From assembly GCA_039714535.1 (NCBI GenBank), contig JBDLJC010000006.1:18925-82924 (forward strand): a stretch of 64,000 nt of DNA, read 5' to 3'. Origin of the DNA: Thermodesulfobacteriota bacterium. Lineage in GTDB: Bacteria > Desulfobacterota > Desulfobulbia > Desulfobulbales > JAGXFP01. Under the pieces are notes generated by a model, which was not told the DNA's origin, made no database searches, and saw only the letters and a list, made by a program, of their open reading frames with translations. A program made the position numbers and the translations under genes. Below, piece after piece: positions 8,315 through 26,933 of the stretch. The stretch's first letter is position 1; the number at the start of each line of letters is the position of its first letter.

Positions 8315-9796
8315 ATGATAACCGGAGAGTTAAAGAGCCAGGTTGATAAAATCTGGGAATCATTCTGGACCGGGGGGATCAGTAACCCGCTCACTGTGAT
8401 TGAGCAGTTTACCTATCTGCTCTTTATCCGCAGACTGGATGAGATTCAGCTGCTGGCAGAGAAGAAGGCCAACCTGATCGATTCCGCGATTAAGGACCCG
8501 GTCTTTACCGCCGAGCAGAAGGATCTGCGCTGGAATGTCTTTAAGAACAAAGATCCCGAGACCATGTTCAACCTCTTCACCAAGCCGCAAAGAGATATCC
8601 CTACCGTATTTGACCACATGAAGGAGTTAAATGGCCGGGCCGGGGCCTTTTCCCAATATATGAAGGGCGCCACCTTTATGATTCCGACCCCCCGCCTGCT
8701 GGATATGGTGGTGCAGATGATCGACAAGATCAAGATGGATGATCGGGACACCAAGGGCGATCTCTATGAATATCTGCTCTCTAAAATCGCCACCGCCGGC
8801 ACCAATGGCCAGTTCCGCACCCCGCGCCATATCATCCGGATGATGGTCGATATGGTCGAGCCGAAAAGTGATGATACCATCTGTGATCCGGCCTGCGGTA
8901 CGGCCGGTTTTATGGTCGGCAGTGGTCAATATCTGCACGATAACCATCCTGACTGGTTCTACGAGAAGGAGTTTAGAGACCACTTCAACTCGAAGATGTT
9001 CACCGGTATCGAGTTTGACAGCACCATGCTGCGGATCGGTGCCATGAACCTGCAGCTCCACGGCATCGACAACCCGCATCTGATCGGCAAGGACTCGTTA
9101 AGTGAGAGTAACGGTGATCTCCGGGAGCGATACAGTCTGATTCTGGCCAATCCCCCATTTAAGGGAAGTCTCGATTATGACAGTGTTGAAAGCTCGATCC
9201 TGAAGACGGTCAAGACCAAGAAGACCGAGCTGCTCTTTTTAGGCCTGATCCTGCGGATGTTAAAGACCGGCGGCCGCTGTGCGGTGATTATTCCGGACGG
9301 GGTTCTTTTTGGTTCTTCCAAGGCCCATAAACAGATCCGCCGGGAGATCATCGAAGGCCATAAACTGGAGGCGGTGATCTCGATGCCGAGCGGGGTGTTC
9401 AAACCCTACGCCGGGGTGAGTACGGCGGTTCTGGTCTTCACCAAGACCAACAGCGGTGGCATCGACCAGGTCTGGTTCTATGATATGAAGGCGGATGGCT
9501 ACAGCCTTGATGATAAGCGGACCAGGATCAAAGACAACGACCTGTCTGATATTGTCGCCCGGTTCAAGAATCGTAAGCAGGAGAGTAACCGGGCCCGGAC
9601 CGAGCAGAGTTTTCTGGTGCCCTTTGGTGAGATCAAGGAGAACGACTGGGACCTGAGCATCAACCGCTACAAGGAAATTGTCTATGAAGAGGTTGAATAT
9701 GCGCCACCGGCGGAGATCATTGCTGATATTGAACAGCTGGATGGTGAGAGGGCTGAGGCCTTGCTGGTGTTAAAGGGGTTGTTGGGATGGAAATGA
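8315..9796 (+). CDS. hsdM: Type I restriction-modification methyltransferase subunit (m6A)
   Basis: [18 protein letters not shown] (motif I), LANPPF (motif IV); N-terminus [21 protein letters not shown]. Confidence 0.95.
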
Positions 9797-10956
9797 TACA
9801 GTTTGACAAAATATGTGAAACGACCCAAGGAGTACAGATACCTAGGTCTGAACAAATTGAAATCCCAGAGGATGGGTATAGCAGGTATTTATACATTGCT
9901 GATTTTTTGTCTGATGGATCATGTAAATACATAAAAAATAATTTCCCAAAAAAAATAGTATATGAAACAGACTTGGTAATGGCTAATACAGGAAGTCCTG
10001 GACGTGTTTTTCTAGGTAAATCTGGGATCTTAAGTAACAACCTTTTTAAAATATCTTTTGATAAAGAGCAGGCCGATAGAGATTATTTGTATAGAGTTTT
10101 AAGTAGCCCTCAATTCCAGGAACGACTACAAAGTCAAATGAAGCAGGGTATACAAAGGCACTTAGGACATAAAACTATTGCTCGTCAGACAATCCCCCTC
10201 CCGCCCTTACCAGTTCAGCAAAAGATCGCCGCCATCCTGGATGCGGCCGATGGACTCAAGCAAAAAGACCAAGCCCTGATCGCCAAATACGATGAACTCA
10301 GCCAAGCCCTGTTTTTGGATATGTTTGGTGATCCGGTTGCGAATTCGATGGGGTGGGAAAAGAAAACAGTAGCGGAAGTATTGCAGAGAAAAAGCCAGAA
10401 TGGATTGTATTTACCTAAGGATAAATATAAGGCTGATGGTATTGAAATGATTCACATGTCTGATGCTTTTTATGGAATCGTAAATGTTGGAAATCTAAAA
10501 AAAGTAGTTTTGGATGATAATGAATTGGAGAAATATCGACTTTCAGAAGATGATTTGTTGTTAGCAAGGAGATCTCTCACTTATGAGGGGGCAGCCAAGC
10601 CATGTCGCATCCCCAAATACAATAAGCCGCTAGTTTATGAGTCATCTTTAATCAGAATCACCCCGAATAAAAGTATGGTCACCACCCTTTATTTGTATTT
10701 TTTCTTTTCTAACGAGAAGGCGAAAAGTAAGTATGTTAACAAGTATATTTCATGTTCCACTATTTCAGGAATCAACAACAAGGGACTAAACTCAATTGAA
10801 ATACTTCTTCCCTCAATAACCCTCCAAAACCAATTCGCCGAACGAATAAAAGCCATCGAACAACAAAAACAACAGGCCCAGGCCAGTCTGCAAAAATCAG
10901 CAGACCTGTTCAACTGCCTTCTGCAAAAGGCATTCAAGGGTGAGCTGGTGACATGA
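9787..10956 (+). CDS. hsdS: Type I restriction-modification specificity subunit
   Basis: Two variable TRDs, each followed by a conserved helix (IPLPPLPVQQKIAAILD; ILLPSITLQNQFAERIKAIE), ending LLQKAFKGEL. Overlaps hsdM and hsdR. Confidence 0.93.
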   Translation: MEMIQFDKICETTQGVQIPRSEQIEIPEDGYSRYLYIADFLSDGSCKYIKNNFPKKIVYETDLVMANTGSPGRVFLGKSGILSNNLFKISFDKEQADRDYLYRVLSSPQFQERLQSQMKQGIQRHLGHKTIARQTIPLPPLPVQQKIAAILDAADGLKQKDQALIAKYDELSQALFLDMFGDPVANSMGWEKKTVAEVLQRKSQNGLYLPKDKYKADGIEMIHMSDAFYGIVNVGNLKKVVLDDNELEKYRLSEDDLLLARRSLTYEGAAKPCRIPKYNKPLVYESSLIRITPNKSMVTTLYLYFFFSNEKAKSKYVNKYISCSTISGINNKGLNSIEILLPSITLQNQFAERIKAIEQQKQQAQASLQKSADLFNCLLQKAFKGELVT

Positions 10957-13900
10957 GTAACTTCCAATTTCTCCAGGCAGGATGGCCGCAACTGTTTAAG
11001 GATGCGAGGGAGGCTGAGAAGCTGGCCCTTGTCTCGCCGAAGGCCTGTGCCATCCTCTGTCGGAGCGCCTTGGAAAACGCGGTTAACTGGCTCTACGATA
11101 ACGACTCTGATTTAGCGACCCCATACGACACCCGCCTCAGTTCTTTGATGCACCAGCAATGCTTTAAGGACATCCTCCAGCCCTCAATCTTCCGCGAGAT
11201 CAATGTGGTCCGGCTGGTGGGGAATAACGCGGCCCATGGCAAACGGGTCAACCGGAACGAAACCCTGATCTCGGTCAAGAACCTCTATCGATTCTTTACT
11301 TTCCTGGTGACGGTCTATTCCGAGTCACCGGTCCCGCAGATATCACCCTTTAATGAATCATCTATCCCGGACGGCAAGGAGGCAGATAAGAGCAGGCAGG
11401 AACTCCTGAAACTTGCCGAGAAGCTTGACCGGCAAAAAGAGCAGGCCCGGTCAGAACGGGAGCAACTTGCGGAACAGGCCAGCCAGATTAAGGAGCTTAA
11501 AGAGAAGCTGGCTGCCCAAAAACAGCAGGTAAAAGAGCGCAAGGATGCCAGAAAGAAAACCGTGGCTACCGAGCAGGCTATTCCCCTGCTCATCTCCGAA
11601 CAGGCAACCCGAAAACTCTATATAGATCTCTCCTTAAAGGAAAGCGGCTGGGATAATCTGCGGGAGGGGAGAGAGCTTGAGTATGAAGTCCGGGGGATGC
11701 CGAAAAGCACCAATCCATCGGGGTTGGGTTATGCTGATTATGTCTTGTGGGGTGATGACGGTCTGCCGCTGGCGGTAATTGAGGCCAAGAAGACCATGGT
11801 CGATGCCCATAAGGGCAGACACCAGGCCGAGCTCTATGCCGATTGCCTGGAGGAGATGCATGGCCAGCGGCCTTTGATCTTTTACACCAACGGTTTTGAC
11901 ACCTACCTCTGGGATGACCGGTTCTATACCGCCCGCGAGGTCCATGGTTATTACAGCAAGGACGAGCTACAGCTGAATATCGACCGGCGCCTCACCAGAC
12001 AGGACCTGCGTAATTTTATGGTCAATACCGAGATCGCCGGCAGACCCTATCAGCTGGAAGCGATCCAGCGGGTTGCGGAAAACCTCGTGACCACCGGCCC
12101 GGACGGTAAACTCAAGGGCAGCGCCAGGCAAAGTCTGCTGGTAATGGCAACCGGCAGTGGCAAGACCAGGGTGTCCGCCGCCATCGTTGATATGCTGACT
12201 AAATGCGACTGGGCAAAGAGAGTCCTTTTTCTGGCGGATCGAAATGCGCTGGTGACTCAGGCCAAGAACGCCTTTAGCGAGTTTCTGCCCCATCTCTCGG
12301 CCATCGACCTTACCAAGGAAAAAGAAGATCCCGGCACCAGGATCGTCTTTTCTACATACCCAACAATCATGAACAGGATTGACGGGGTAAAGAATAGCGA
12401 TACCCGTTTCTATGGCGCCGGGCATTTCGACCTGATCATAATTGATGAGGCGCACCGCTCGGTGTATCAGAAATATGGCGCCATCTTTGCTTATTTTGAC
12501 AGCCTGTTAATCGGGCTTACCGCAACTCCGAAAAAAGAGATAGACCGCAATACCTATGGTCTTTTCGGCATAGAGGATGATGACCCGACATTTGCCTATG
12601 AACTCGGCAGTGCGGTAAAAGACGGTTTTCTGGTGCCGCCCAAAGCGATCCTGGTGCCGATAAAATTTCAGCGTGAGGGGATTAAGTACAAAGACCTGTC
12701 TGAGGCGGAAAAGAAAGAGTATGAAGAAAAATTTGGTGACCCGACCAAGGAGGAAGCCCCGGACGAGATATCCAGCAGCGCCTTGAACAGTTGGCTGTTT
12801 AATACCGACACCGTTGACAAGGTGCTTGATCATCTGATGGGTAACGGCATTAAGGTGGAGGCCGGTGACAAGCTTGGCAAAACGATCATCTTTGCCAAGA
12901 ACCATAAACACGCGGTTTTTATCGAAGAGCGTTTCAATAAAAATTATCCTGAATACTCGGGCAAGTTTTTACGGGTGATCGACAACTACGAAACCAAGGC
13001 CCAGGACCTGCTTGAAAGGTTTACCGACCCATACAACGAAGTTGATCCGCAGATCGCCGTATCGGTAGATATGATGGACACCGGGGTTGATGCGCCAAGG
13101 GTGGTCAACCTGGTATTTTTTAAGCTGGTCAGAGCAACTTCCAAATTCTGGCAGATGATCGGCAGGGGCACCCGGCTTTGTCCGGATCTGTTTGCCCCCA
13201 ATGAAGATAAAAGCCATTTTCTGATCTTTGACTTCTGCCAGAACTTTGAGTTCTTCGACCAGAACCCGGACGGCATTGATGGTAATGCGATAAAAAGCCT
13301 CAGCCAGCAGATATTTGAGGCCAAGTTTGAAGTGGCCATGTTAATCAGGGACAAACAGGCGAAAAGGGAAGAGGAGGCAGAGCTGTCTCAGCAATATATC
13401 AATGAATTGCATGGTATCGTGGACGGGCTTGACCAGGACCGTTTCGTGGTCAAAAAAGAACTGCGCTATGTGACGGAATATAAACACCGGTCCAGGTGGG
13501 AGAACCTTTCCAAGGGTGATGTGCTGGATATCACGGCCCACCTCTCGCATCTGGTGATCCCCCGTAAAGATGATGACGAGTTAGCGAGAAGGTTCGATAT
13601 CCTGGTTTTAAATTGCCAGCTGGCCCTGTTGGCTGATCTGCAGACCGACAAGTACGTTAATAAGATCAGCAATATTGCCAAGGCGTTAGTTAAAAAGAAG
13701 AATATTCCAGCGGTTGGCCAACACATTGACTTGCTAAAAGAACTGCAAACCGCTCTTTTCTGGAAAGGGGTAAATGTCAATCGGTTGGAAGAAGTGAGGT
13801 CCGCCTTGCGGGAACTGGTTAAGTTTCTGGATAAGGATCAGCAAGTTGACGTGGTTACCCATTTTGAAGACGAACTTGATAAAAAGAAGATCGGCACCAG

Positions 13901-14402
13901 AGAAGTTGTGCCAATCTACCATACCTTAAAAAGCTATCGTGACCGGGTTGAGTCATATATCCGGAAAAACAGGAACCACCTGGTTATTCATAAATTGAAT
14001 ACCAACCTCCCCATAACCCAGATGGAGATTAATACGCTGGAGGGTATCCTCTTTGATGGCGATGAACGGGGCACCAAACAGGATTACCTGGCCGAATACG
14101 GCGATCAACCTCTGGGTAAGTTCATCAGGAGCATTGTCGGGCTGGATATTAAATCGGCCAATGAGGCCTTTGCTGATTTTCTCCAGGCGGGGAACTTGCG
14201 GGCCGACCAGATGACCTTTTTGAACAATATCATTACCTACCTGACCAAAAACGGAACCATCGATAAGGCCATGCTCTTTGAACCGCCGTTTACCCATATT
14301 AACGACCAGGGATTACTTGGTGTTTTCGATGATGCCCAGGCGACGAAGATTATTCAGATAATAGATAAGGTTAATAGGAATGCGATGGTAGTGGGTGGGT
14401 AG
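10953..14402 (+). CDS. hsdR: Type I restriction enzyme R subunit (EcoAI/EcoEI-like)
   Basis: Nuclease motif ADYVLW...VIEAKK, MATGSGKT, IIIDEAHRS, GLTATP, QMIGRGTR; C-terminal region resembles EcoEI_R_C. Confidence 0.95.
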   Translation: MSNFQFLQAGWPQLFKDAREAEKLALVSPKACAILCRSALENAVNWLYDNDSDLATPYDTRLSSLMHQQCFKDILQPSIFREINVVRLVGNNAAHGKRVNRNETLISVKNLYRFFTFLVTVYSESPVPQISPFNESSIPDGKEADKSRQELLKLAEKLDRQKEQARSEREQLAEQASQIKELKEKLAAQKQQVKERKDARKKTVATEQAIPLLISEQATRKLYIDLSLKESGWDNLREGRELEYEVRGMPKSTNPSGLGYADYVLWGDDGLPLAVIEAKKTMVDAHKGRHQAELYADCLEEMHGQRPLIFYTNGFDTYLWDDRFYTAREVHGYYSKDELQLNIDRRLTRQDLRNFMVNTEIAGRPYQLEAIQRVAENLVTTGPDGKLKGSARQSLLVMATGSGKTRVSAAIVDMLTKCDWAKRVLFLADRNALVTQAKNAFSEFLPHLSAIDLTKEKEDPGTRIVFSTYPTIMNRIDGVKNSDTRFYGAGHFDLIIIDEAHRSVYQKYGAIFAYFDSLLIGLTATPKKEIDRNTYGLFGIEDDDPTFAYELGSAVKDGFLVPPKAILVPIKFQREGIKYKDLSEAEKKEYEEKFGDPTKEEAPDEISSSALNSWLFNTDTVDKVLDHLMGNGIKVEAGDKLGKTIIFAKNHKHAVFIEERFNKNYPEYSGKFLRVIDNYETKAQDLLERFTDPYNEVDPQIAVSVDMMDTGVDAPRVVNLVFFKLVRATSKFWQMIGRGTRLCPDLFAPNEDKSHFLIFDFCQNFEFFDQNPDGIDGNAIKSLSQQIFEAKFEVAMLIRDKQAKREEEAELSQQYINELHGIVDGLDQDRFVVKKELRYVTEYKHRSRWENLSKGDVLDITAHLSHLVIPRKDDDELARRFDILVLNCQLALLADLQTDKYVNKISNIAKALVKKKNIPAVGQHIDLLKELQTALFWKGVNVNRLEEVRSALRELVKFLDKDQQVDVVTHFEDELDKKKIGTREVVPIYHTLKSYRDRVESYIRKNRNHLVIHKLNTNLPITQMEINTLEGILFDGDERGTKQDYLAEYGDQPLGKFIRSIVGLDIKSANEAFADFLQAGNLRADQMTFLNNIITYLTKNGTIDKAMLFEPPFTHINDQGLLGVFDDAQATKIIQIIDKVNRNAMVVGG

Positions 14403-15028: not shown

Positions 15029-15580
15029 TTATTTGTCTCTAATGGTGGTGAATTTTAGTTTTTCTGCGGCCGCCTTTAAGGCCCGAAATATCTCCCTTGA
15101 TTGGCCGACTTTGCGGGTGGCGGCAAAATTTTCCGCTGGTTTGGCCAGGTCTTCTATGTTCAGGGCCGGGAACATCTCGATAGCTTTTTTGAGGGGAGGG
15201 GCCTTACGATCCATAAAGAAATAACCTTCGTAGTCATCGCGATCATTATACTCGTCGAGGGCGGCAGCAATTATGTCGTTTTTCAGTCTTTCCAACTCCT
15301 TGTGGGCAATGTTGGTTTTCAGATGTGAGCCCCGGCGTTCTTCAAGGAAGTTAAGTAGTTCGTCTATCGACTGTTTGCGCAATTCTTTAGCGATGTATTT
15401 GATCTGCCGTTTACGGGAGCCTGCTTTAAGTTTCCTGACCGCCTTGATCTCTTGCCGAAGGAAGTCGTCGCAGGGTAGTTTGAGCAGTTCGGCCGGCGAT
15501 AATTCCGCCAGTTCTTTACTGAGTGTTTCTATCTCTTTGGCCTGGCGTTTTTTTTCAGTACGGCTGACGGTGTAGTCCAT
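15029..15580 (-). CDS. yjgA: Ribosome-associated protein YjgA/DarP (DUF615)
   Basis: SRTEKKRQAKEI...ELAEL, RKRQIKYIAKELR. Confidence 0.8.
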   Translation of the reverse strand: MDYTVSRTEKKRQAKEIETLSKELAELSPAELLKLPCDDFLRQEIKAVRKLKAGSRKRQIKYIAKELRKQSIDELLNFLEERRGSHLKTNIAHKELERLKNDIIAAALDEYNDRDDYEGYFFMDRKAPPLKKAIEMFPALNIEDLAKPAENFAATRKVGQSREIFRALKAAAEKLKFTTIRDK

Positions 15581-15708
15581 TGTTCCCTTGCTGCAATCGT
15601 GGTTTGCCTTTTTTTGTTGCCTTTCAGTGACGGGCTAAAGTAATATCTCTTAGCCTTTGAGACTAGCATTTAACCATCTTATTCCAATAATAGATAAGGA
15701 ATTTTATC

Positions 15709-16881
15709 ATGAGCCATAAAACTTTTACCATCACCCAGCCCACCCGATTGACCTTCGGCGCCGGTACCATTGGGGGGCTTGCCGATCTGGTCAAAGAAGA
15801 GGGCGGCACCAAGGCTTTTCTGGTAGTTGATCCTGGTCTCAAGAAGGCGGGGCTGTTGAAAAAGGTTACCGCCCCGCTCAAGAAAGCAAAAATGGACTTT
15901 GAGGTCTATGATAAAATTGATCCCGAGCCGGGTCTGAAGCTTGCCGATGGTGGCTGCAAACTGGCGGCCAAGAGCGGTTGTGACTGTGTTATTGGCGTAG
16001 GCGGTGGTTCGGCCATGGATGTGGCCAAGGCAGTGAGCATTCTGCTGACCAACGGCGGCAAGGCTGAGGATTATCTCGGGTTGGGTAAAATCACCAAGCC
16101 CGGGGTGCCGAAGATTATGGTGCCAACCACGGGTGGTACTGGCGCTGAGGTGACTTTCACCGCAGTTTTCATTAATGAGAAAACCGGTTCCAAGGGCGGG
16201 ATGAACGGTGATCCGCTCTACCCGGATGCAGCCCTTCTTGATCCGGAGCTGACCGTTTCCGTACCGCCGCATATAACCGCGGCAACCGGTATCGACGCCT
16301 TTACCCATGCCATCGAAGGATATGTCTCAACCCAGTCCCATGCCATCTCTGATATGTATGCCCTGGAAGCCATCGAGATGATCAGTCGTAATCTGCCAAG
16401 GGCCTATGGTAATGGCGATAATATCGAGGCCCGTTCTGCTATGTTGATGGGGAGTTTGCTGGCCGGTAAGGCCTTGGCCACGGCCGGGGTTGGTCTGGTC
16501 CATGCCATGGCCTACCCGCTTGGGGGCATGTTCGGTATCCCCCATGGTCTGGCTAACGCAGTCCTGTTGCCGTATGTCGTCGAGTATAACCTGATCGGCA
16601 ACCCCGGCAAGTATGCGGCGGTGGCTGAGGTCATGGGCTATGACACCACTGATATGCCGTTACGCGATGCTGCGGCGCAAGTGGTTGAGGCTATTTTTAA
16701 TTTGAATAACGATGTGGGGATTCCTTCAAGTCTGGCCGACCTTGATATCCCGATTGAGAAAGTTCCTGAGATGGCAGACATCGCCTTGACCGTTGCCGTC
16801 CCGATTGCGAATAACCCACGCAAACCGACCCGAGACGAGGTAATTCAGGTTTATCATAATGCCCTGATCGGCTGGGAGTAA
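15709..16881 (+). CDS. Iron-containing alcohol dehydrogenase; candidate KdnB-like Kdo 8-oxidase
   Basis: GGGSAMDVAK, PTTGGTGAEVT, DAFTHAIE, GLVHAMAYPLG, HGLAN. Lies directly upstream of a KdnA-like aminotransferase. Confidence 0.85.
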   Translation: MSHKTFTITQPTRLTFGAGTIGGLADLVKEEGGTKAFLVVDPGLKKAGLLKKVTAPLKKAKMDFEVYDKIDPEPGLKLADGGCKLAAKSGCDCVIGVGGGSAMDVAKAVSILLTNGGKAEDYLGLGKITKPGVPKIMVPTTGGTGAEVTFTAVFINEKTGSKGGMNGDPLYPDAALLDPELTVSVPPHITAATGIDAFTHAIEGYVSTQSHAISDMYALEAIEMISRNLPRAYGNGDNIEARSAMLMGSLLAGKALATAGVGLVHAMAYPLGGMFGIPHGLANAVLLPYVVEYNLIGNPGKYAAVAEVMGYDTTDMPLRDAAAQVVEAIFNLNNDVGIPSSLADLDIPIEKVPEMADIALTVAVPIANNPRKPTRDEVIQVYHNALIGWE

Positions 16882-16889
16882 TATTCGAA

Positions 16890-17012
16890 TCCGGCTGACG
16901 ATCCCGGCCAATTGCGGCGTTGGCTGCCGGGATTCCATGCTCGACGTACAGTTGTACGCCTGTGCTGAAATCCCTTTGCCGCCTTGCCCTTGACCGGGCT
17001 TGTTAGCCTCAG
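16890..17012. repeat. About 120 nt long imperfect palindromic intergenic element
   Basis: Nested arms GGCTGAC/GTTAGCC, CCCGG/CCGGG, GGGATT/AATCCC, central GACGTAC-AGTT-GTACGCC. Confidence 0.6.
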
Positions 17013-17135
17013 TTTTTAGTAATAAAAAAGTTTTGTCTTAAATGATGGATTGAGTGGGCTTGTTGCAACGCTGCGCTGGTAATGATCAGATAATCACTCC
17101 CTGTTGATTGTAGAACATAATAAAAGGAGGCTGAA

Positions 17136-18338
17136 ATGCCCGGTTTTGAAGTTTTCGGTGAGGAAGAAAAGAAAGAGATCATGGAAGTTCTGGATACCGG
17201 GGTGCTTTTTCGCTATGAGTTTCCGGAACAGCGCAAGGGTATCTACAAGGTAAAAACCTTCGAGGAGAAGTTCGCTGCCTATTGCGGGGCCAAATATGGC
17301 CAGGCTGTGACCTCAGGCACCGTCGCCCTCAAAGTGGCTTTGGCGGTTCTGGGCGTGGGGCCCGGTGACGAGGTCATCACCCAGGGCTTTACCTTTGTGG
17401 CAACCTGGGAAGCCATTCTCGATATCGGTGCGATACCGGTCTTCACCGAGGTTGATGAGACCCTGAACATGGATCCGACCGATCTGGCGAAGAAGATCAC
17501 CGATAAGACCAAGGCGATTATTCCGGTCCATATGATGGGTGCTGCGGCTCGGATTGAGGAAATAGTCGCCATTGCTGATAAGCACGGGATTCCCGTAATC
17601 GAGGATACTGCCCAGGCGGCCGGGGGCAAATTGAACGGCAAGGGCTTGGGTTCCTTCGGCACCCTTGGTACCTTCTCCTTTGATGCGGTTAAAACTATGA
17701 CCACCGGGGAGGGTGGCATGGTAATCACCGATGATGAAGAACTCTGGCGGAAAATGAGCGAATATCACGACCATGGCCATGATCATGTTCAGAATCCCGG
17801 CGGCCGTGGCGGTGAGGGGCGCAGTTTTATCGGCTTCAATTACCGGATGATGGAGCTGCAGGGCGCCATAGGTCTGGCGCAGCTGGCCAAGCTCGACCAG
17901 ATGATCTCCACCCAGAAAGAACATAAGGCCAGGCTGAAAGAGGCGGCGGCCAAGATCCCAGGGGTGACCTTTCGGACCCAGCTGGATGAATCCGGTGATA
18001 ATGCAACCTTCTTTGCCTTCCTGTTGCCCGATGCGGCCAAGGCCCAGGCGGTAAATGAGGTCTTGAAAGCCGAAGGGTGCGGGGCCATCTATTTTGCCGA
18101 TAATACCTGGCATTATTATCCCAAGTGGGAACATCTGCTGGCTGGTTCCACACTGGCGGAGTCGGGCTGGCCCTTTGTCAGCCACGGTAAACGGCGGGTT
18201 GTTTACGATCAGGACGTTTTGCCGGCCTCGGCTGAGATTATGGGCCGCTGTCTGGTCTTTCAGGTGCTGATCAAATTGACCGAGGAGAGGGTGCAACAGA
18301 TCTGTGCCGCTCTGGAGAAGGCGGCAACAGTGGTTTAA
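17136..18338 (+). CDS. kdnA: DegT/DnrJ-family PLP aminotransferase, KdnA-like (8-amino-Kdo transaminase)
   Basis: SGTVAL, EDTAQA, FSFDAVKTMTTGEGG (PLP Lys). MPGFEVFG N-terminus, DHGHDH and NTWHY match my recollection of Shewanella KdnA; kdsB is nearby. Confidence 0.7.
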   Translation: MPGFEVFGEEEKKEIMEVLDTGVLFRYEFPEQRKGIYKVKTFEEKFAAYCGAKYGQAVTSGTVALKVALAVLGVGPGDEVITQGFTFVATWEAILDIGAIPVFTEVDETLNMDPTDLAKKITDKTKAIIPVHMMGAAARIEEIVAIADKHGIPVIEDTAQAAGGKLNGKGLGSFGTLGTFSFDAVKTMTTGEGGMVITDDEELWRKMSEYHDHGHDHVQNPGGRGGEGRSFIGFNYRMMELQGAIGLAQLAKLDQMISTQKEHKARLKEAAAKIPGVTFRTQLDESGDNATFFAFLLPDAAKAQAVNEVLKAEGCGAIYFADNTWHYYPKWEHLLAGSTLAESGWPFVSHGKRRVVYDQDVLPASAEIMGRCLVFQVLIKLTEERVQQICAALEKAATVV

Positions 18339-18367
18339 CCACAAAGTCATATAGTTGATTGTGTTGG

Positions 18368-18395
18368 AAGGAGCGCCTGTTTAGGCGCTCCTTTT
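18368..18395. terminator. Terminator between convergent kdnA and rsmJ
   Basis: AAGGAGCGCCT-GTTT-AGGCGCTCCTTTT perfect 11 bp stem. Confidence 0.85.
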
Positions 18396-18413
18396 GGTAT
18401 TCTTGAAGAGAGG

Positions 18414-19196
18414 TTACGTAGTTTTTATTAGGTAAACATCGAAACGGTTGTTCTTGGTTTTGAAGACCAGATCCGGTTTCGGCCCGTTTAGGGGTGGGGC
18501 GTAGGCCGGCCGTTTGACCACCACCCGCTTGCTTGCCACCTTGAGGGCGCCAGTCAGCAGGAGGTCACTGTCTTCATCATCGCCAACCAAGCTTCTTAAA
18601 ATCCGCATCTCTTTTTTGACCAGGGCACTCTTGCTGCGGTGGGGATACATTGGATCCAGGTAGACCACTTCCGGACGGCGATGGGGTTGAGCCTTTGCCA
18701 TCTCCAGCAAACTGTCGCCTCTCCGCAAAGACATCCGCTCCCTTACTATTGTTCCTATCTCGGGATCATCGGCGGCTCGCCCCAGGCCGTCCGCCAGAAG
18801 GGCGGCTATCACGGGATTGCGCTCCATCATCTCGACCCTGCAGCCTTGACAGGCCAAGATAAAACTGTCCTGGCCGAGGCCGGCGGTGCCATCCAGAATA
18901 CTTGGCAAATTTTCACCTTTGATTCCGATTGCCCGGACCAGGGTCTGTTTGCGGCCTCCTCCCCGTCTGCGTCGGTAGTCGGTCTTGCCGCTGGTGAAAT
19001 CAATCCAGACCGGGCCTGGCGCTTTGGGGCCAATCTGCCGGAGCTCTAACCTGTCTCTGGTAACCATCAATAACAAAGAGTGGTTGGTTGTGTCCGGCTC
19101 GGTGAGAGGGATTTGCAGCTGCTTGGCCAGTACCACTGCTTTTTGGCGCTGTTCCGGGGTTTCAGCAGCTACGGCTATATTGTTTGATATCGCCAC
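18414..19196 (-). CDS. rsmJ: 16S rRNA m2G1516 methyltransferase
   Basis: DGTAGLGQDSF, MERNP, VVYLDPMYP, RVVVKRP, RFDVY. Confidence 0.88.
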   Translation of the reverse strand: MAISNNIAVAAETPEQRQKAVVLAKQLQIPLTEPDTTNHSLLLMVTRDRLELRQIGPKAPGPVWIDFTSGKTDYRRRRGGGRKQTLVRAIGIKGENLPSILDGTAGLGQDSFILACQGCRVEMMERNPVIAALLADGLGRAADDPEIGTIVRERMSLRRGDSLLEMAKAQPHRRPEVVYLDPMYPHRSKSALVKKEMRILRSLVGDDEDSDLLLTGALKVASKRVVVKRPAYAPPLNGPKPDLVFKTKNNRFDVYLIKTT

Positions 19197-19362
19197 GGTA
19201 ATGTTTAAATCCGCTGGTTATGGTTGCCCGGTAATGTTAGTCTGGACAGTTACGTGCTTTGTGGAGTAAAAAGCATTTCTGGTTCTTCGTCTGCAACGTT
19301 GAACAGACTCTATTAAGGAGCTTCTGGCATTTCGAATTAAATTTATATCGAGAGATATTAAC

Positions 19363-20136
19363 ATGGATCCAACCCATAAAAAAGAACCGAAGGTTGTCGC
19401 AATAATTCCGGCCCGATATCATTCAAACCGTTTTGAGGGTAAACCCCTGGCCAAGATCATGGGTAAAGCGATGATCCAGCATGTTTATGAGCGGGCCTTG
19501 GCGGTTGATCTGGTCTCACTGGTGGCGGTGGCCACCGATGATGAAAGGATAGCTGAGTGTGTCCGTGGTTTTGGCGGCCAGGTGGTGATGACCAGTTCCG
19601 ACCATGTCTCCGGGACCGACCGGCTGGCCGAAGCCGCGACCCTTCTTGATATCAATGAGCAGGATGTGGTCGTCAATATTCAAGGCGACCAACCCCTCTT
19701 TGATCTCTCCGTGGTTGAGCAGGTGGCGCGGCCATTATTGGATGACCCGGCCCTGCCGATGTCCACTCTTATCTATAAGATAATTCGTCCCGAAGAGATC
19801 GATGATCCGAATCATGTTAAAACGGTTTTTGATGTCAACGGCATGGCCCTCTATTTTTCCAGGGCACCGATCCCTTTTCAGCGGAACCCGGAAGAACCGC
19901 AGACGCCTACTTACTACAAGCATCTTGGCTTTTACGCGTACCGCAAGGGTTTCTTGCTGACCTTTGTCGGTCTGCCTGAAGGCGAATGGGAGCGCTTCGA
20001 AAAACTTGAGCAACTGCGGGCTCTGGAATATGGCTATAATATCAAAGTTGTTCTCACCGAACATGACTCGGTTGAGGTGGATACGCCCCAGGATCTGGCC
20101 AGAGTTGAGGGGGTGTTCCGTGGTGGTGCAAAGTAA
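19363..20136 (+). CDS. kdsB: 3-deoxy-manno-octulosonate cytidylyltransferase
   Basis: IIPARYHSNRFEGKPL, SGTDRLAEA, VVNIQGDQP, ALYFSRAPIP, HLGFYAYR, EKLEQLRALE. Confidence 0.95.
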   Translation: MDPTHKKEPKVVAIIPARYHSNRFEGKPLAKIMGKAMIQHVYERALAVDLVSLVAVATDDERIAECVRGFGGQVVMTSSDHVSGTDRLAEAATLLDINEQDVVVNIQGDQPLFDLSVVEQVARPLLDDPALPMSTLIYKIIRPEEIDDPNHVKTVFDVNGMALYFSRAPIPFQRNPEEPQTPTYYKHLGFYAYRKGFLLTFVGLPEGEWERFEKLEQLRALEYGYNIKVVLTEHDSVEVDTPQDLARVEGVFRGGAK

Positions 20137-20197
20137 GTTGTGTTTGCTGATAACTATTGTTTTAAAAATCATAGATAATGAATGAGAGGTTGACGTA

Positions 20198-21124
20198 ATG
20201 CGCAAGAAGATAACGATAATCGGGGCTGGTAATGTTGGTGCTACCGCTGCTCACTGGGCAGCGAGCCGGAGACTGGGCGATGTGGTTCTTCTCGATGTGG
20301 TGGAAGGGATCCCCCAGGGCAAGGCCCTTGACCTGTTACAGGGTGGCCCGGTTGATGAATTTTCCAATATTGTCACGGGTTCTAATGATTATAAAGATTC
20401 CGCTGATTCCGATGTGGTGATCATTACCGCCGGTCTGGCCCGGAAACCGGGGATGTCCCGCGATGATCTGCTGGCCAAGAACGTGGCGATCGTCAAATCC
20501 TGCGCCGAGCAGGCCGCCAAACATTCACCCAATTGCGTGATGATTGTGGTAACCAATCCCATTGACGCCATGGTTTACACGGCGTTCAAGGTCTCAGGTT
20601 TTCCGCGGGAGCGGGTGATCGGCATGGCCGGTGTGCTTGATTCGGCCCGGTACCGCACCTTTCTGGCCATGGAGCTGGGCATTGCCCCCCGGGACGTTAA
20701 TGCCATGGTCATGGGTATCCACGGCGACAATATGTTGCCCTTGGTCAGACTGGCCAATGTTTCAGGAATACCGGTGACCGATTTGATCTCCGCCGAACGA
20801 CTGGCTGAGATTGTCAAACGGACCCAGCAGGGTGGGATTGAGATCGTCAATCACCTGAAAACCGGCAGCGCCTTTTATACCCCGGGCCTGGCTGCCGTGG
20901 AGATGGCCGAGGCGGTCCTGCTCGATAGTCAACGGCTTCTGCCCTGTGCGGCCTATCTTGAAGGGGAGTTCGGCTTTTCCGGCTGTTTCCTTGGGGTACC
21001 GGTGGTGCTGGGTAGTGGCGGGGTGGAACGAATCGTTGAGTTCGAACTTACTGGTGAAGAGAAAGAGGAGATGTTGGTCTCTGAGAATGCGGTCAGGGGT
21101 CAGATGGCTGCTACCGGCCTATAA
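20198..21124 (+). CDS. mdh: Malate dehydrogenase (LDH-like)
   Basis: IIGAGNVG, ITAGLARKPGMSRDDL, VTNPIDAM, GVLDSAR, GIHGD. Confidence 0.92.
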   Translation: MRKKITIIGAGNVGATAAHWAASRRLGDVVLLDVVEGIPQGKALDLLQGGPVDEFSNIVTGSNDYKDSADSDVVIITAGLARKPGMSRDDLLAKNVAIVKSCAEQAAKHSPNCVMIVVTNPIDAMVYTAFKVSGFPRERVIGMAGVLDSARYRTFLAMELGIAPRDVNAMVMGIHGDNMLPLVRLANVSGIPVTDLISAERLAEIVKRTQQGGIEIVNHLKTGSAFYTPGLAAVEMAEAVLLDSQRLLPCAAYLEGEFGFSGCFLGVPVVLGSGGVERIVEFELTGEEKEEMLVSENAVRGQMAATGL

Positions 21125-21223: not shown

Positions 21224-21248
21224 GGGGAGTTTGCGCAATATCTGGTCT

Positions 21249-23468
21249 ATGAGCGACGAAAGAACCACAAACCTGCAGGTTGATGCCGGGTTGTTTGATC
21301 TTTTGCCCGGCGAGGAACTGGTCGAAAAGGTTGTTGAGCTTGCTTTGTCGGCAGGGCCGATCGATCAACCGGATCTGGCGGATCTGAGCGAACAACTTGA
21401 GGGGCTGGATACCAGTGACCTGAATGTCGTGGTTTTTGGCGGCGGCACCGGGCTGTCCAATCTGGTGGGCGGTGACAGCCGCCATCCTTTATGGCCGTTC
21501 TCGTCATTTCGGGGCCTGAAGGAGATATTTCCCCGCGCCAGATCGGTTGTCTGTATAACCGATGACGGTGGTTCGACCGGCGAGCTGCTCAAGGATCTTG
21601 ATCTGATTGCTATCGGCGACCTCCGCCATGTTCTGCTTTCTTCGGTTAGCCTCAAGATATTGCAGGATAGATATGGTCTCGATGAAGATGGTTGCCGGGG
21701 CACGGTTACGATCCTGCATCGTCTCTTTAATTATCGCTTTGATAATCCTCCCCGTGATTTGAACAGTCTGCTGGCGGTGGCGGAGATCAATCTGGCTGGA
21801 TTGCCTGGTGCGATGGCCGGTCCGCTTGCTGATCTCCTTGCCGGCCTGTTTGAAGATGATCGTCTCCGCAAATTATTGCAGCGCCCTCACTGTCTGGGCA
21901 ATCTCCTGGTGGTCTCGGCAATCTGCCGCCAGTCCGATCTTGATGATTTCAGCCATGACCATAAAGCTCTGCTCAAGGCTTTTCGATATCTGGCCGACCT
22001 GCTGGGCGCAGGTCGGGATGCGGTGTTGCCCTGTGCGACGACTTCAGCCCATCTCAAGCTGCTGTACTCCAATGGAGTGATGGTCTCTGGTGAGTACAAG
22101 GCGGGGCATGCCCGTCGCGGTTGTCCGGTGGAACGTCTATTTGTCTATTCCCACGGTGAGCCCCAGATTCCAGCCGAAGTACTCGATAATATTAATGGTG
22201 CCGATATTATCATCTTTGCGCCGGGCAGTCTCTACACCAGCATTATTCCGATCCTGCAGTTGCCGGCAATTTCCGAGGCGGTAAGAAGTAACCGTCGCGC
22301 TCTTAAATTATTGGTTGCCAATCTCTGGGTCCAGAAAGGTGAGACCGATTTGGTGGCGTGCTCCTCCAGGCGGCGGTTTTACATTTCCGATCTAATCCTG
22401 GCTTATCATCGTAATATCCCCGGCGGGGTCGATGGCCTGTTCCGGCAGGTAATGACGCTGGGGTTGCACGATATTCCCGGCAGTATCCTCCAAAGTTATG
22501 CCTTGGAGGGTAAGGTGCCGATCTATTTTGATCGGGACCAAGTTGCGAAACTAGGTTTTATGCCGGTTGAATGCCCAATTTTTTCCGACCAAGCCCTGGA
22601 GGAACGCTTGGTGCTACAGCATGATCCAGAGGCCATGGCCAGGGCCGTTCGGGCTGTCTGGGCCGTGCATGATCAATTTGCTGCGGGCGGTCGAATCTCT
22701 CTACCGCTGGAAAGATCTGCATCCTCGGTCAGGGTCGGCCCTGCTACTGATATTCCGGCTCGACGGTTGGCTGCTATCACCGACCTTCTTACTGGTTTTG
22801 ATGTTGATCTCCAGTTAAAGGAGCGGTTGCTGGATATTCTTTGGCATCATCGGGATATAAATATCGACCATCTCACCTATCTTGATGGGGTGGTGCTGGT
22901 CGATAGACTTGTTTGGAACCGTTCCCAGAGATGGGACAGAATCTTTTCTTTTTACGATCCGCAGGACCGATTGATCAAGATCAGGCAGGATGTCTTTGCC
23001 GATCAGGACCGTTTTGAACTGGCTTTTCTGGTGGCCTTGGGGGAATCGCTGCTGGGTAATTACGCCGCTGGAAAAGAGATGCTGCCCGTGGAAAATGATG
23101 TGGGACCGCTGGGCCGGATCTATCAGATAGCCCTTAGAACTGAATCGGAGCGGCGATGCTTTTTTGATGACAGCGATCTGCAGGAGTATCTGGAGTTGGC
23201 CAGAATGTGCCGCTCAGTTGAAAATCCGCATATTTACACCAGACTGTTGAACGGCAGGGAGGGCTTCACGCCTCCGGGGTTGCTTTTCGGGTTGGTCTTT
23301 GCCTGGTATCTTGATAATCGTTTTGCGGCCCACATCGAGTATAAAATGGCTATTCTGGGCATGGAGGTACCAGATATGATTCCGGAACAGGCTAAAGTTT
23401 GTTCGCGGCGGCGGCGACTGGTCGATTTTTTCCGTCGGAGAGTGTTTGTTGGTTATATGAGTGAGTAG
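21249..23468 (+). CDS. YvcK/CofD-family protein with a long C-terminal extension
   Basis: VVVFGGGTGLS, TDDGGSTG, GDLRHVL, IFAPGSLYTSIIP. About 250 extra C-terminal residues beyond the usual family length. Likely ATG at 21249; the track starts at 21231. Confidence 0.8.
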   Translation: MSDERTTNLQVDAGLFDLLPGEELVEKVVELALSAGPIDQPDLADLSEQLEGLDTSDLNVVVFGGGTGLSNLVGGDSRHPLWPFSSFRGLKEIFPRARSVVCITDDGGSTGELLKDLDLIAIGDLRHVLLSSVSLKILQDRYGLDEDGCRGTVTILHRLFNYRFDNPPRDLNSLLAVAEINLAGLPGAMAGPLADLLAGLFEDDRLRKLLQRPHCLGNLLVVSAICRQSDLDDFSHDHKALLKAFRYLADLLGAGRDAVLPCATTSAHLKLLYSNGVMVSGEYKAGHARRGCPVERLFVYSHGEPQIPAEVLDNINGADIIIFAPGSLYTSIIPILQLPAISEAVRSNRRALKLLVANLWVQKGETDLVACSSRRRFYISDLILAYHRNIPGGVDGLFRQVMTLGLHDIPGSILQSYALEGKVPIYFDRDQVAKLGFMPVECPIFSDQALEERLVLQHDPEAMARAVRAVWAVHDQFAAGGRISLPLERSASSVRVGPATDIPARRLAAITDLLTGFDVDLQLKERLLDILWHHRDINIDHLTYLDGVVLVDRLVWNRSQRWDRIFSFYDPQDRLIKIRQDVFADQDRFELAFLVALGESLLGNYAAGKEMLPVENDVGPLGRIYQIALRTESERRCFFDDSDLQEYLELARMCRSVENPHIYTRLLNGREGFTPPGLLFGLVFAWYLDNRFAAHIEYKMAILGMEVPDMIPEQAKVCSRRRRLVDFFRRRVFVGYMSE

Positions 23469-23727: not shown

Positions 23728-24366
23728 ATGAAAAGAAAACTACACATAGGTGGCAAGCAGCGAGCTGATGGGTGGGAAATTGTGAATGCAATCTCAGCTC
23801 CTTATGTTGATCATATCTGTAACGCTAATGATTTGTCTCAATTCGCAGATGGGACATTCTCTGAATTATATGCTTCTCATGTTGTTGAGCACTTGGATTA
23901 TCAAAATGAATTAGTATCCACCCTTAAAGAATGGTGGCGCATCATGGAACCTGGTGGGAAAATATATATCAGTGTTCCTGACCTAGAAGTTTTATCAAAA
24001 CTTATTCTTTCAAAGAATAAATTAACGATTGACGAACGTTTCCACGTAATGAGGATGCTATTTGGTGGTCATGTAGACAAGTATGATTATCACGTAGTTG
24101 GGTTAAACGAGGAATTTCTCACAGGATTTCTCAAAATAGCTGGGTTTATAAATATTATAAAGGTCGAGGGGTTTGATCTTTTTAACGACACAAGTAATTT
24201 GAAGTTTAAGGAGGTTGCAATAAGTTTAAATATAATTGCAGAAAAACCCAACAGATCTATCTCAGACGTAAATATTAATTCGGCCTTTGGTAAAAGTGGT
24301 CGGAATGAGCCTTGTCCGTGTGGTAGTGGAAGAAAGTATAAAAAATGTCATGGTAAACGCGTCTAA
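23728..24366 (+). CDS. Class I SAM-dependent methyltransferase with C-terminal SEC-C motif
   Basis: KLHIGG, YASHVVEHL, RIMEPGGKIYISVPDL; C-terminal [19 protein letters not shown]. Confidence 0.82.
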   Translation: MKRKLHIGGKQRADGWEIVNAISAPYVDHICNANDLSQFADGTFSELYASHVVEHLDYQNELVSTLKEWWRIMEPGGKIYISVPDLEVLSKLILSKNKLTIDERFHVMRMLFGGHVDKYDYHVVGLNEEFLTGFLKIAGFINIIKVEGFDLFNDTSNLKFKEVAISLNIIAEKPNRSISDVNINSAFGKSGRNEPCPCGSGRKYKKCHGKRV

Positions 24367-24744
24367 CCAATAAGGATTACTGCGACTGGAACGGTCGCAA
24401 TTAATACATTGTTCAAATAACCTGAAGGTATTTGGAACCGGGCACCATATAGGGTATTGCTTCTTCGCCATATTTTTTTCAGGTAGAGAAAATCAAGATC
24501 AACTAGTCGAATCATCCTCACAAATAACTGCGACCCCATTGTAAATATGTGAAATCATTGCCTTAACTTGAAATGTTAACACCCTTGGATTTATGGGTGA
24601 AGACATTCAGAGGAGAGAAGAAATGATTAAGAGTTGTTTTGAGGTGGTACGGGGGGCTGAGCCTTTTCTTGAAAGCGGATTTAATCTCGAAAGGATGTGT
24701 CTCCACGGTTGCCTATCTAGGATTTTGGTTGTTAACTCAAGTAG

Positions 24745-26748
24745 TTATTTTTTTGAAGAGAATCCGTTTAGATAAATTTCTTTGTAAATGCCCTCCAATG
24801 TTTTCGTGAATTGCTGGCTGTCCATGAGCGATGATTGTTGTAGCTTTTCACGTATACTACCGCGTAATTCTGTTAACTTATCTATGTTATGTGCTAGTGA
24901 TACGGTCAGATTTTTATATTCCACCCATGATTCAGCTACCAATTCCTTAAGCCCAGTATGATTCATGATACTGGCACCTACTCTTCCGGAATGGCGGTCA
25001 CCCAACATTGTTACCACGGGAACTCCCATCCACAAAGCCTCAAACGTGGTCGTCGTTCCGTTGTATGGAAAGGGATCAAGGCCTATATCAATTTTCCTAT
25101 ACAGGTCTAGATGCGCCTCTTTTTTTGGCAACCGGCCCAAAATTTCTATACGATTAGCAACGATCCCGTAAGCCTCAAACATCTTAATATATCGCACCTT
25201 ACTCTCAAGATTTGCAAAAATGCTGCTTTTCAGGAGAAGACGGGAATTGGTAACTGAATTTAAGATCTCCGCCCAAAGCCGAACGACCTCAGTAGAAATT
25301 TTGGACATATTATTAAAAGAACCAAAAGTAATGTAACCCTTTTTGATGCAGGGTGCTGGTCTTACTTCCGGTGCAGTGGCCTCAGGTTGATAACAGAGGA
25401 AACCATTTTTCATGCGGATTAGTTTTTCGCTGTGCAATTTATCTGCTTCACCAGGAGGGTCTGCTATAGCATCGGTTAACCGGTAGTCCAGAGCTTTTAG
25501 GCCGGTTGTATTCGGATAACCTAGCCATGTTATCTGCACCTTTGCCGGACGTTGAGCAAAGACCAGTAATCTATTGCCTTTTGAATGTCCTGCAAGGTCT
25601 ACGAGAATGTCAATCTCATTTTCTTTGATCAAATCTATAACTTTTGTGTCTTCCATTCCCCAGATATCGTGCCATTCATCGGCTGCATCACGTAAGCGTT
25701 GCGTGACTACGTCTGTTTTTTCGACATTAGCATAGCAATAAACCTTTATGTTTTCTCTGTTATGATAACGAAGAACAGGTTCGATAAAATAAGAAACTGA
25801 ATGGTCACAGAAATCTGGGGAAAGGTAGCCAATTTTTAATCGACGCCCTTCTTCGCGGTCATTTTCAAGGCTTTGTTCATCAGTTAGAGTGGTTGGTGCG
25901 TACAACTCATTCCAACGTAGTGATTCCAAATAAATTTCTTCCTGTGAAACGGTTGGCACATAATTAAGATCGAACAATATACTTGAATGAGTATTATGTT
26001 CTGGATCAAGAGCGAGAGATTGCCGATAAAAGGAAACTGCGTCATTAGCTGCGCCCATTTTTTCACATATAGCACCAAGATTTCTATAAGCTGGCGCATA
26101 GTCTTTGTTCAAATCCAAGGCTTTCTTGCAACTATTCTCAGCTTCTTGGAGTCTGCCAGTATTTATCAATGCATATGCCAGATTACTATGCAAATTTGGA
26201 TCAAGACTATTTATTTCTATGGCTCGCTTAAAGCAAGTTACAATGTCTTCATGCCTGCCAAGTTCATAAAATATTATTCCAAGTTTATTCCAGGCTCTCA
26301 AATAATTTTTATTTATGGCGAGAGCTTTTTTGAAACATTCGATCGACTTTTCTCTCTGTCCGAAGAGATGGTAGGTGTTGCCTAACTCAAAATAAGCCTC
26401 AGTGAATTTCGGTTTGACGTCTATTGCATGGATAAAAAATTCTGAAGCACGAAGGAGTTGGCCTTGGCGAAGGGACAGTAGGCCATATACATATAAAGCT
26501 GTAGGGTTATCTGGGTTTGATTTTAATTCCTCAGCACTTGCTGTTTCAGCTTCTTGCATTCTCCCAGAATTATATAATCGTAGAGGAATAGAGCTTTCTG
26601 GCTTGAATACCATTTTGTTTCGCCGGTTTCGTAGCTTTTTAGCTAGTTTGTTCTTCTTTGGTGTTTTTTTGCCCATACCCATGTTGTAACCCTGTAAGAA
26701 ATCTTGCCCAAGAGAGTGTCTGTCAATGATCTCGGTAAAATGGAACAA
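24745..26748 (-). CDS. TPR-containing O-GlcNAc transferase-like (SPINDLY/GT41) protein
   Basis: N-terminal TPRs followed by KIGYLSPDFCDHSV, DILVDLAGHS, QITWLGYPNTTG, FGSFNN, LDPFPYNGTTTTFEALWMGVPVVT. The start may be ATG at 26682. Confidence 0.88.
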   Translation of the reverse strand: MFHFTEIIDRHSLGQDFLQGYNMGMGKKTPKKNKLAKKLRNRRNKMVFKPESSIPLRLYNSGRMQEAETASAEELKSNPDNPTALYVYGLLSLRQGQLLRASEFFIHAIDVKPKFTEAYFELGNTYHLFGQREKSIECFKKALAINKNYLRAWNKLGIIFYELGRHEDIVTCFKRAIEINSLDPNLHSNLAYALINTGRLQEAENSCKKALDLNKDYAPAYRNLGAICEKMGAANDAVSFYRQSLALDPEHNTHSSILFDLNYVPTVSQEEIYLESLRWNELYAPTTLTDEQSLENDREEGRRLKIGYLSPDFCDHSVSYFIEPVLRYHNRENIKVYCYANVEKTDVVTQRLRDAADEWHDIWGMEDTKVIDLIKENEIDILVDLAGHSKGNRLLVFAQRPAKVQITWLGYPNTTGLKALDYRLTDAIADPPGEADKLHSEKLIRMKNGFLCYQPEATAPEVRPAPCIKKGYITFGSFNNMSKISTEVVRLWAEILNSVTNSRLLLKSSIFANLESKVRYIKMFEAYGIVANRIEILGRLPKKEAHLDLYRKIDIGLDPFPYNGTTTTFEALWMGVPVVTMLGDRHSGRVGASIMNHTGLKELVAESWVEYKNLTVSLAHNIDKLTELRGSIREKLQQSSLMDSQQFTKTLEGIYKEIYLNGFSSKK

Positions 26749-26933
26749 TTTGATTGTAAAATATTATTCCAAGACACTTCTTTTTGTTGTAATTGTGGGG
26801 AGTGACTTTTTATTTATTTAAAACAACCTGCCAATCAAGTTAAGTAGACAGCGCAGAGTGTAGCGGCCTAACGGCATTGATACTGTGTCAGGATTGGTGT
26901 TTTGAGAGCTTCGACGGAGAAAAGAACATAATA

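Follow-up and report, generated by a model that had tools for sequence, protein, structure and literature searches.

A predicted Kdo8N module of the Desulfobacterota pairing a KdnA orthologue with a dehydrogenase of the KdnB clade

The stretch of DNA analysed here, a window of 64,000 nucleotides (C6:18925-82924) from a 3.35-Mb metagenome-assembled genome (MAG) that is 96% complete and has Desulfurivibrionaceae and Desulfobulbales MAGs as its nearest relatives, carries genes for an iron-containing alcohol dehydrogenase (Fe-ADH, referred to below as X), an aminotransferase and KdsB, the synthetase that activates 3-deoxy-manno-octulosonate (Kdo) as CMP-Kdo. With good confidence we propose that these three genes constitute a module for 8-amino-Kdo (Kdo8N) that parallels the kdnA-kdnB-kdsB cluster of Shewanella, that X belongs to the same clade as the Shewanella dehydrogenase KdnB, and that KdnB is a long-branch derivative which has repeatedly replaced X by horizontal transfer. 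This proposal rests on results set out below: the assignment of the genes to families, their phylogeny, the recurrence of the cassettes, the mutual exclusion of X and KdnB and the joint losses, all of which were established here. The initial annotation of this DNA had suggested a Kdo8N pathway for lipopolysaccharide (LPS) with a divergent KdnB-like dehydrogenase that may use another electron acceptor under anaerobic conditions; its KdnA and KdnB-counterpart parts have held up, and its appeal to anaerobiosis has not.

In Shewanella oneidensis Kdo8N is made by KdnB (EC 1.1.3.48) and KdnA (EC 2.6.1.109), encoded next to KdsB (Gattis et al., 2013, as given in PMC4402001), and the logic predicted here is the same: oxidation of Kdo at C8, transamination and activation with CTP. 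Comparison of the window aminotransferase with solved structures placed PDB entry 5k8b first, with 326.5 bits over residues 1-393, and the next PDB chain at 183 bits. By their PDB titles, 5k8b is KdnA and 5k8c is KdnB. The motifs from which the initial annotation had recognized KdnA, namely MPGFEVFG (residues 1-8), DHGHDH (212-217) and NTWHY (323-327), belong to a protein that matches KdnA over its full length, and alignment with Shewanella and other gammaproteobacterial KdnA proteins showed M1, P2, G3, E5, F7, D212 to H217, N323, W325, H326 and the pyridoxal phosphate (PLP) lysine K186 to be invariant. The protein is a PLP aminotransferase of the DegT/AHBA-synthase type with this catalytic lysine, resembles the characterised KdnA over its full length more than it does other characterised sugar aminotransferases, and is accompanied in the genome by KdsB and a predicted Kdo C8 dehydrogenase.

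When three DegT paralogues from the same genome serve as the outgroup of a tree, the KdnA-like proteins form a single clade (support 96), and the window protein falls inside it with Shewanella KdnA and not among the other DegT paralogues, as the initial annotation had anticipated. This clade divides into two sister clades: type II (support 100), which includes Shewanella and is partnered by true KdnB, and type I (support 95), which is partnered by X and includes the window protein, approximately 41% identical to Shewanella KdnA. By these comparisons the window aminotransferase is identified as a full-length KdnA orthologue (EC 2.6.1.109), and it is predicted to be a PLP-dependent 8-oxo-Kdo:glutamate aminotransferase that yields Kdo8N. 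The KdnA half of the finding is already known to at least one annotation pipeline, because JGI names close relatives "8-amino-3,8-dideoxy-alpha-D-manno-octulosonate transaminase".

The dehydrogenase gives a different picture when raw similarity is considered. Among solved structures X scores highest against E. coli FucO, K. pneumoniae DhaT and the Bacillus-type NAD-dependent methanol dehydrogenase (Mdh), all group III Fe-ADHs, at 264-283 bits, whereas KdnB (5k8c) ranks only about 33rd, with 110 bits. At 31-33% identity and 110-124 bits, X falls short of close orthology with the S. oneidensis KdnB, to which true orthologues keep 59-65% identity also in Desulfobulbales. KdnB for its part scores 110-159 bits against X and at most 76 bits against non-KdnB structures, and by these scores it is nearer to X than to any characterised Fe-ADH. 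X also lies below each NCBIfam equivalog cut-off (350 bits vs 523 for TIGR02638) and has altered substrate-pocket residues, which places it outside the FucO/DhaT/Mdh-type catabolic enzymes. Relatives of X are labeled in every source only as "iron-containing alcohol dehydrogenase", so the initial annotation was correct that an enzyme of such generic appearance would be mis-annotated. The only other Fe-ADH of the genome (C10:23845-24936) is of the YqhD/butanol-dehydrogenase type and has no KdnB match, and a hidden true KdnB was thereby ruled out in this 96%-complete genome.

Three phylogenetic analyses recovered X and KdnB as one clade, with support of 97/91 (80 sequences, LG+G4), 100/99 (95 sequences, LG+G4, including 30 extra Fe-ADHs unlinked to KdnA) and 99/97 (50 sequences, LG+C20 PMSF). 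The extra outgroups and a few added X-KdnA pairs were taken from an X-alignment scan on generic Fe-ADH patterns, most matches of which were unrelated Fe-ADHs. FucO, DhaT, Mdh and the 30 other Fe-ADHs fall outside the clade, and KdnB lies among the X lineages, with a stem branch whose length is 1.3-2.3 substitutions per site. Long-branch attraction would draw KdnB to the outgroup, not into X. Because all three trees nest KdnB among X lineages, X is best read from its sequence as the conservative, slowly evolving form of the KdnB lineage and not as an unrelated recruit, with KdnB as a fast-evolving, long-branch offshoot. This topology refines the description of X in the initial annotation as a divergent KdnB-like enzyme that looks like a generic alcohol dehydrogenase.

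KdnB (3-deoxy-manno-octulosonate 8-oxidase, EC 1.1.3.48) corresponds to CDD model cd08184, "FeADH3" (PMC5125639), and the group III Fe-ADH fold, metal ligands and dinucleotide site are all present in X. X keeps the GGGS motif (98-101), the NAD-type Asp41 and the metal ligands D196, H200, H265 and H279, features shared with FucO, DhaT and Mdh; the ligands in FucO are D196, H200, H263 and H277 (PMC10087678). These motifs suggest NAD+ as the acceptor of X. Comparison with 46 other Fe-ADHs identified D80, T151 and N166 as positions specific to X and KdnB, with T151 present in 28 of 28 X and 18 of 18 KdnB sequences and in none of the 46 others. In the alignment T151 occupies the position of FucO N151, a residue that forms a hydrogen bond with the hydroxyl beside the reacting carbon (PMC10087678), and N166 that of FucO V166, part of the lining of the specificity pocket (PMC10324492), so that two of the three clade-specific residues map to the FucO substrate pocket. 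Relative to FucO, the X pocket carries Thr for N151, Asn for V166, Val for L259 and Tyr for H267. A length variant was seen in genus g37 (e.g., G079 C1:2168593-2169738 and G194 C1:4063341-4064489), where the open reading frame (ORF) around the X orthologue spans 575-620 residues instead of approximately 390, suggesting an N-terminal extension or fusion.

Local synteny was dropped as functional proof, since synteny in Desulfobulbales extends over the entire block and takes in unrelated genes (darP, rsmJ, mdh and a cofD-like gene); adjacency there is weak evidence, and we therefore relied upon phylogenetic profiles and distant cassettes. KdnA, X and KdnB were searched in the same 201 Desulfobulbales genomes, with the KdnB query taken from a Shewanella xiamenensis locus (L009) of the order kdnA-kdnB-kdsB; X orthologues shared 63% identity or more with X of the window and were set off by a clean score gap, and true KdnB was 58-65% identical to the Shewanella protein. 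KdnA was present in 189 genomes, 119 with X only, 69 with true KdnB only, none with both and 1 with neither, such that KdnA is accompanied by X or KdnB in 188 of 189, the co-occurrence that the initial annotation had proposed to look for. Among the 12 genomes lacking KdnA, 9 had neither dehydrogenase, 2 had X only, 1 had true KdnB only and none had both. Both of the X-positive genomes also have no KdsB match, which suggests a missing contig instead of a true absence of KdnA. Joint loss was found in genomes from five genera (g16, g31, g43, g49 and g59). Because X and KdnB are mutually exclusive, X is lost together with KdnA, and the cassettes are retained across the phylum, X very probably fills the role of KdnB.

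Changes from one enzyme to the other are found within families f2 and f5, with a further case in genus g90 (G279), which amounts to at least three separate X-to-KdnB replacements. In the KdnB-type Desulfobulbales KdnA is still type I (64-71% identical to the window KdnA), while KdnB is located at least 100 kb from it in variable contexts and is approximately 60% identical to its Shewanella counterpart, compared to approximately 41% for KdnA; such a pattern would be expected if KdnB, acquired horizontally, had displaced X repeatedly. These replacements are in effect a natural replacement experiment, and they support the same job for the two enzymes. KdnB-positive genomes include those of cultured Desulfogranum, Desulfopila, Desulfobulbus and Desulforhopalus, which are anaerobic sulfate reducers. 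With true KdnB this common among anaerobic relatives (69 of the 201 genomes), the suggestion of the initial annotation that anaerobiosis dictates a different enzyme is unsupported, and we rejected it.

KdsB follows the same distribution. Taking a best E-value of 1e-93 or lower as the definition of a module-type orthologue, we found one in 188 of the 188 KdnA-positive Desulfobulbales genomes with any KdsB match, usually as the sole KdsB; G163 has KdnA but lacks any KdsB match. In the nine genomes without KdnA and both oxidases there are only distant KdsB proteins (E-values 1e-53 to 1e-72). Cassette-type KdsB thus co-varies with KdnA. In Shewanella the cluster KdsB is likewise the only copy. The present genome is in a minority state among its relatives in having two CMP-Kdo synthetases: by tblastn the module KdsB shares 53.5% identity with the cluster KdsB of Shewanella and 48% with the second copy (C5:75735-76478), which lies directly after waaA and ahead of a GT9 heptosyltransferase in a core-LPS cluster (G000 C5:74446-78883). 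KdsA, WaaA and heptosyltransferase are all encoded in this genome.

The pairing of X with KdnA extends well beyond Desulfobulbales. A sample of 301 genomes from the phylum contained KdnA-like genes in 84. Outside Desulfobulbales, 54 genomes encode KdnA together with an X homologue (45-62% identical), and in 48 of these the X gene directly precedes kdnA in the same orientation. Compact X-KdnA-KdsB cassettes were seen in many families among the fetched loci. Of the 217 genomes lacking KdnA, only 3 have an X-like gene at 45% identity or more, which in one case lies at a contig edge. Fourteen other genomes of the sample contain true KdnB, mostly in Shewanella-type KdnA-KdnB(-KdsB) cassettes, and in a few, such as G279 and G467, KdnB lies apart from KdnA. 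Outside of the phylum sample, X-KdnA pairs were found in Syntrophales, in one Synergistaceae MAG and in one Ca. Ratteibacteria MAG. The order of the Fe-ADH ahead of KdnA is no chance neighbourhood, as it recurs in many families of the phylum. Separately, KdnB-like proteins 41-47% identical to KdnB are encoded in genomes of family f52, genus g125 (e.g., G288 C1:3229633-3230703) that have no KdnA match, and at locus L208 (4346-6772) the neighbour of a KdnB-like protein is a DegT aminotransferase that shares only 32% identity with KdnA; both probably belong to a different amino-sugar-acid pathway.

Compared with the S. oneidensis pathway, the module described here shares an orthologous KdnA, a dehydrogenase of the same Fe-ADH clade, the clustering of three gene families and a cluster KdsB that is the only KdsB in most carriers. 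It differs in gene order (X-KdnA-(rsmJ)-KdsB vs KdnA-KdnB-KdsB), in an X of 390 residues with a typical Fe-ADH sequence vs the 356 residues of the long-stemmed KdnB, in the type I KdnA and in its hosts, which are anaerobic Desulfobacterota. The type II KdnB/KdnA cassettes of other Desulfobacterota (e.g., L197-L203, L209 and L210), often followed by KdsB, have the same predicted product, but they combine KdnB with type II KdnA in the Shewanella order, whereas the window combines X with type I KdnA.

From family chemistry and genomic association we infer the substrates, cofactor, order of steps and LPS product as follows. X would act on free Kdo and oxidise its primary alcohol at C8 to an aldehyde (8-oxo-Kdo), probably with exchangeable NAD+ at the metal site; KdnA would convert 8-oxo-Kdo into Kdo8N with glutamate as the amino donor, and this transamination would draw the unfavourable oxidation forward. 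The neighbouring KdsB would then form CMP-Kdo8N, from which WaaA, encoded on contig C5, would transfer Kdo8N onto lipid A. Kdo8N in these organisms is accordingly a prediction.

Several observations weigh against this interpretation. Raw similarity places X far closer to FucO, DhaT and Mdh than to KdnB, and X is not the reciprocal best match of KdnB in Shewanella; Tyr269 (FucO His267), which seemed specific to X and KdnB when few outgroups were compared, is common in a wider Fe-ADH subfamily and was rejected as a signature. The distance between X and KdnA ranges from 2 kb to 380 kb in several Desulfobulbales families, and in the window itself 254 bp separate X from kdnA and rsmJ is inserted ahead of kdsB. 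The Desulfobulbales synteny, as noted, covers unrelated genes, and because the genomes are related the counts exceed the number of independent events. Were X an ordinary catabolic alcohol or aldehyde dehydrogenase of the propanediol, ethanol or methanol type that merely resides in a conserved housekeeping block, with another enzyme making 8-oxo-Kdo, its top characterised relatives, the shared synteny of darP, rsmJ and mdh and the gap ahead of kdnA would all be expected. We nevertheless regard this as very improbable, given that X is under all of the equivalog cut-offs, is perfectly exclusive with KdnB and is lost jointly with KdnA, adjoins KdnA in 48 of 54 genomes of other families as well as in the Synergistaceae and Ratteibacteria MAGs, clades with KdnB to the exclusion of FucO, DhaT and Mdh, and has the FucO pocket residues N151 and V166 exchanged just as in KdnB. 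X also has no link to fucose, glycerol or methanol genes.

It is improbable, in our judgement, that X and KdnA aminate another sugar acid or act at another stage (CMP-Kdo, lipid-bound Kdo or a nonulosonic acid). The modest identity of type I KdnA to the Shewanella enzyme and the KdnB-like branches that are accompanied elsewhere by other aminotransferases, as at L208, would be compatible with such a role, but the cassette partner is a bona fide KdsB, usually the sole KdsB of the genome, family scans of the window identified no NeuB-type gene beside the cassette, and the two KdnA types are sister clades. Moreover, true KdnB replaces X while type I KdnA stays, which implies the same intermediate. 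A silent or dispensable module, with the waaA-linked KdsB on C5 supplying ordinary CMP-Kdo and an LPS with little or no Kdo8N, would account for the presence of two KdsB genes, unlike most relatives, and for the position of one of them directly after waaA; however, the three module genes are intact, with no stop codons seen, and are 87-90% identical to those of the nearest relative (L083), a separate MAG, leaving this explanation with very little probability. The Kdo8N module with X as the counterpart of KdnB is thus the reading that we retain.

Kdo8N has been described as a hallmark of Shewanella or as restricted to that genus (PMC4402001, PMC6357163), in which its loss results in sensitivity to polymyxin and bile salts (PMC4402001). 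Shewanella-type kdnA-kdnB-kdsB clusters with KdnA 70-85% identical were also found outside Shewanella, in hosts that include Thiomicrorhabdus, Hydrogenovibrio, Aliikangiella/Kangiellaceae, Corallincola and Paraferrimonas (L065, L067 and L068-L082), indicating by gene content that Kdo8N gene clusters are not confined to Shewanella even within Gammaproteobacteria. The present analysis predicts Kdo8N for a large, environmentally important group of anaerobes and provides a specific predicted function for a widespread clade of enzymes that all pipelines annotate as generic alcohol dehydrogenases; a literature search found no description of an X-type Kdo dehydrogenase. As a rule for annotation, an X-clade Fe-ADH with Thr151 and Asn166 beside KdnA would be a predicted Kdo 8-dehydrogenase.

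KdnB has been described as an alcohol oxidase that works with O2 rather than free NAD(P)+ and has tightly bound NAD(H). This puzzle becomes testable, as the predicted ancestral X resembles a normal NAD+ dehydrogenase and many strict anaerobes have true KdnB. Tentatively, and at somewhat less than even confidence, we further suggest that Kdo8N is the sugar normally found in the inner core of most Desulfobulbales, among them the cable bacteria, of many other Desulfobacterota and of some Syntrophales, Synergistota and Ratteibacteria; that the ancestral first enzyme was of the X type, exchanging NAD+ freely; that KdnB is a fast-evolved derivative which, spreading by horizontal transfer, took the place of X repeatedly and did so in strict anaerobes as well; and that the cassette KdsB is a Kdo8N-adapted synthetase. 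If this is true, the physiological oxidant of KdnB would not be O2.

The layout of the locus is given in Table 1. The succession of Fe-ADH, aminotransferase, one inverted gene and kdsB reported in the initial annotation was recovered in the ORF listing and family scans, with the inverted gene proving to be rsmJ-like. This gene is interposed and lies outside the module, being missing from the compact X-KdnA-KdsB cassettes of other families. The spacer between X and KdnA is often only 12-75 bp in relatives, and in other families KdnA comes after panC-panD instead. The module KdsB also exceeds the cut-off of a second curated model (TIGR00466, 236.7 vs 155.2), and mdh and then a cofD-like gene lie 3' of kdsB. 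A promoter and terminator scan of positions 15400-20400 returned matches no more numerous than in shuffled sequence.

Table 1. Features of the predicted Kdo8N locus, in window coordinates.
Feature	Position	Strand	Evidence
darP-like gene	15029-15580	-	ORF listing and family scans
Fe-ADH X, 390 aa	15709-16881	+	Pfam Fe-ADH PF00465 and ADH_Fe_C PF25137
Spacer between X and kdnA, 254 bp	16882-17135	+	AAGGAGG ribosome-binding site ahead of the kdnA ATG
KdnA orthologue, type I, 400 aa (DegT/DnrJ/EryC1 aminotransferase)	17136-18338	+	PF01041, 313 bits
rsmJ-like 16S rRNA methyltransferase gene, inverted	18414-19196	-	PF04445, 299 bits; NCBIfam RsmJ NF008012, 265 bits (below the 422-bit cut-off)
KdsB, cassette-type (predicted CMP-Kdo/CMP-Kdo8N synthetase)	19363-20136	+	NF003952, 315.7 bits vs cut-off 193

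Other features of the window were noted. The CofD/YvcK-like protein (21231-23468), at 745 residues, is far longer than usual, and its position downstream of kdsB-mdh is conserved in all of the Desulfobulbales. The block is immediately preceded by a complete type I restriction-modification operon (8315-14402) consisting of HsdM (8315-9796), HsdS (9787-10956) and an HsdR of 1149 residues with DUF4145 and EcoEI_R_C domains (10953-14402). A low-GC island (23728-27974; GC 0.35-0.40 vs approximately 0.52 elsewhere) encodes a SEC-C-motif methyltransferase, a TPR and GT41 glycosyltransferase of 667 residues (24745-26748, minus strand) and an Acyl_transf_3 membrane acyltransferase (26877-27974), and may be a horizontally acquired surface-glycan modification island. 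Finally, a protein of 583 residues (31783-33534) fuses a YcaO cyclodehydratase domain to C-terminal TPR repeats and is encoded near a DUF1015 protein and a small methyltransferase.

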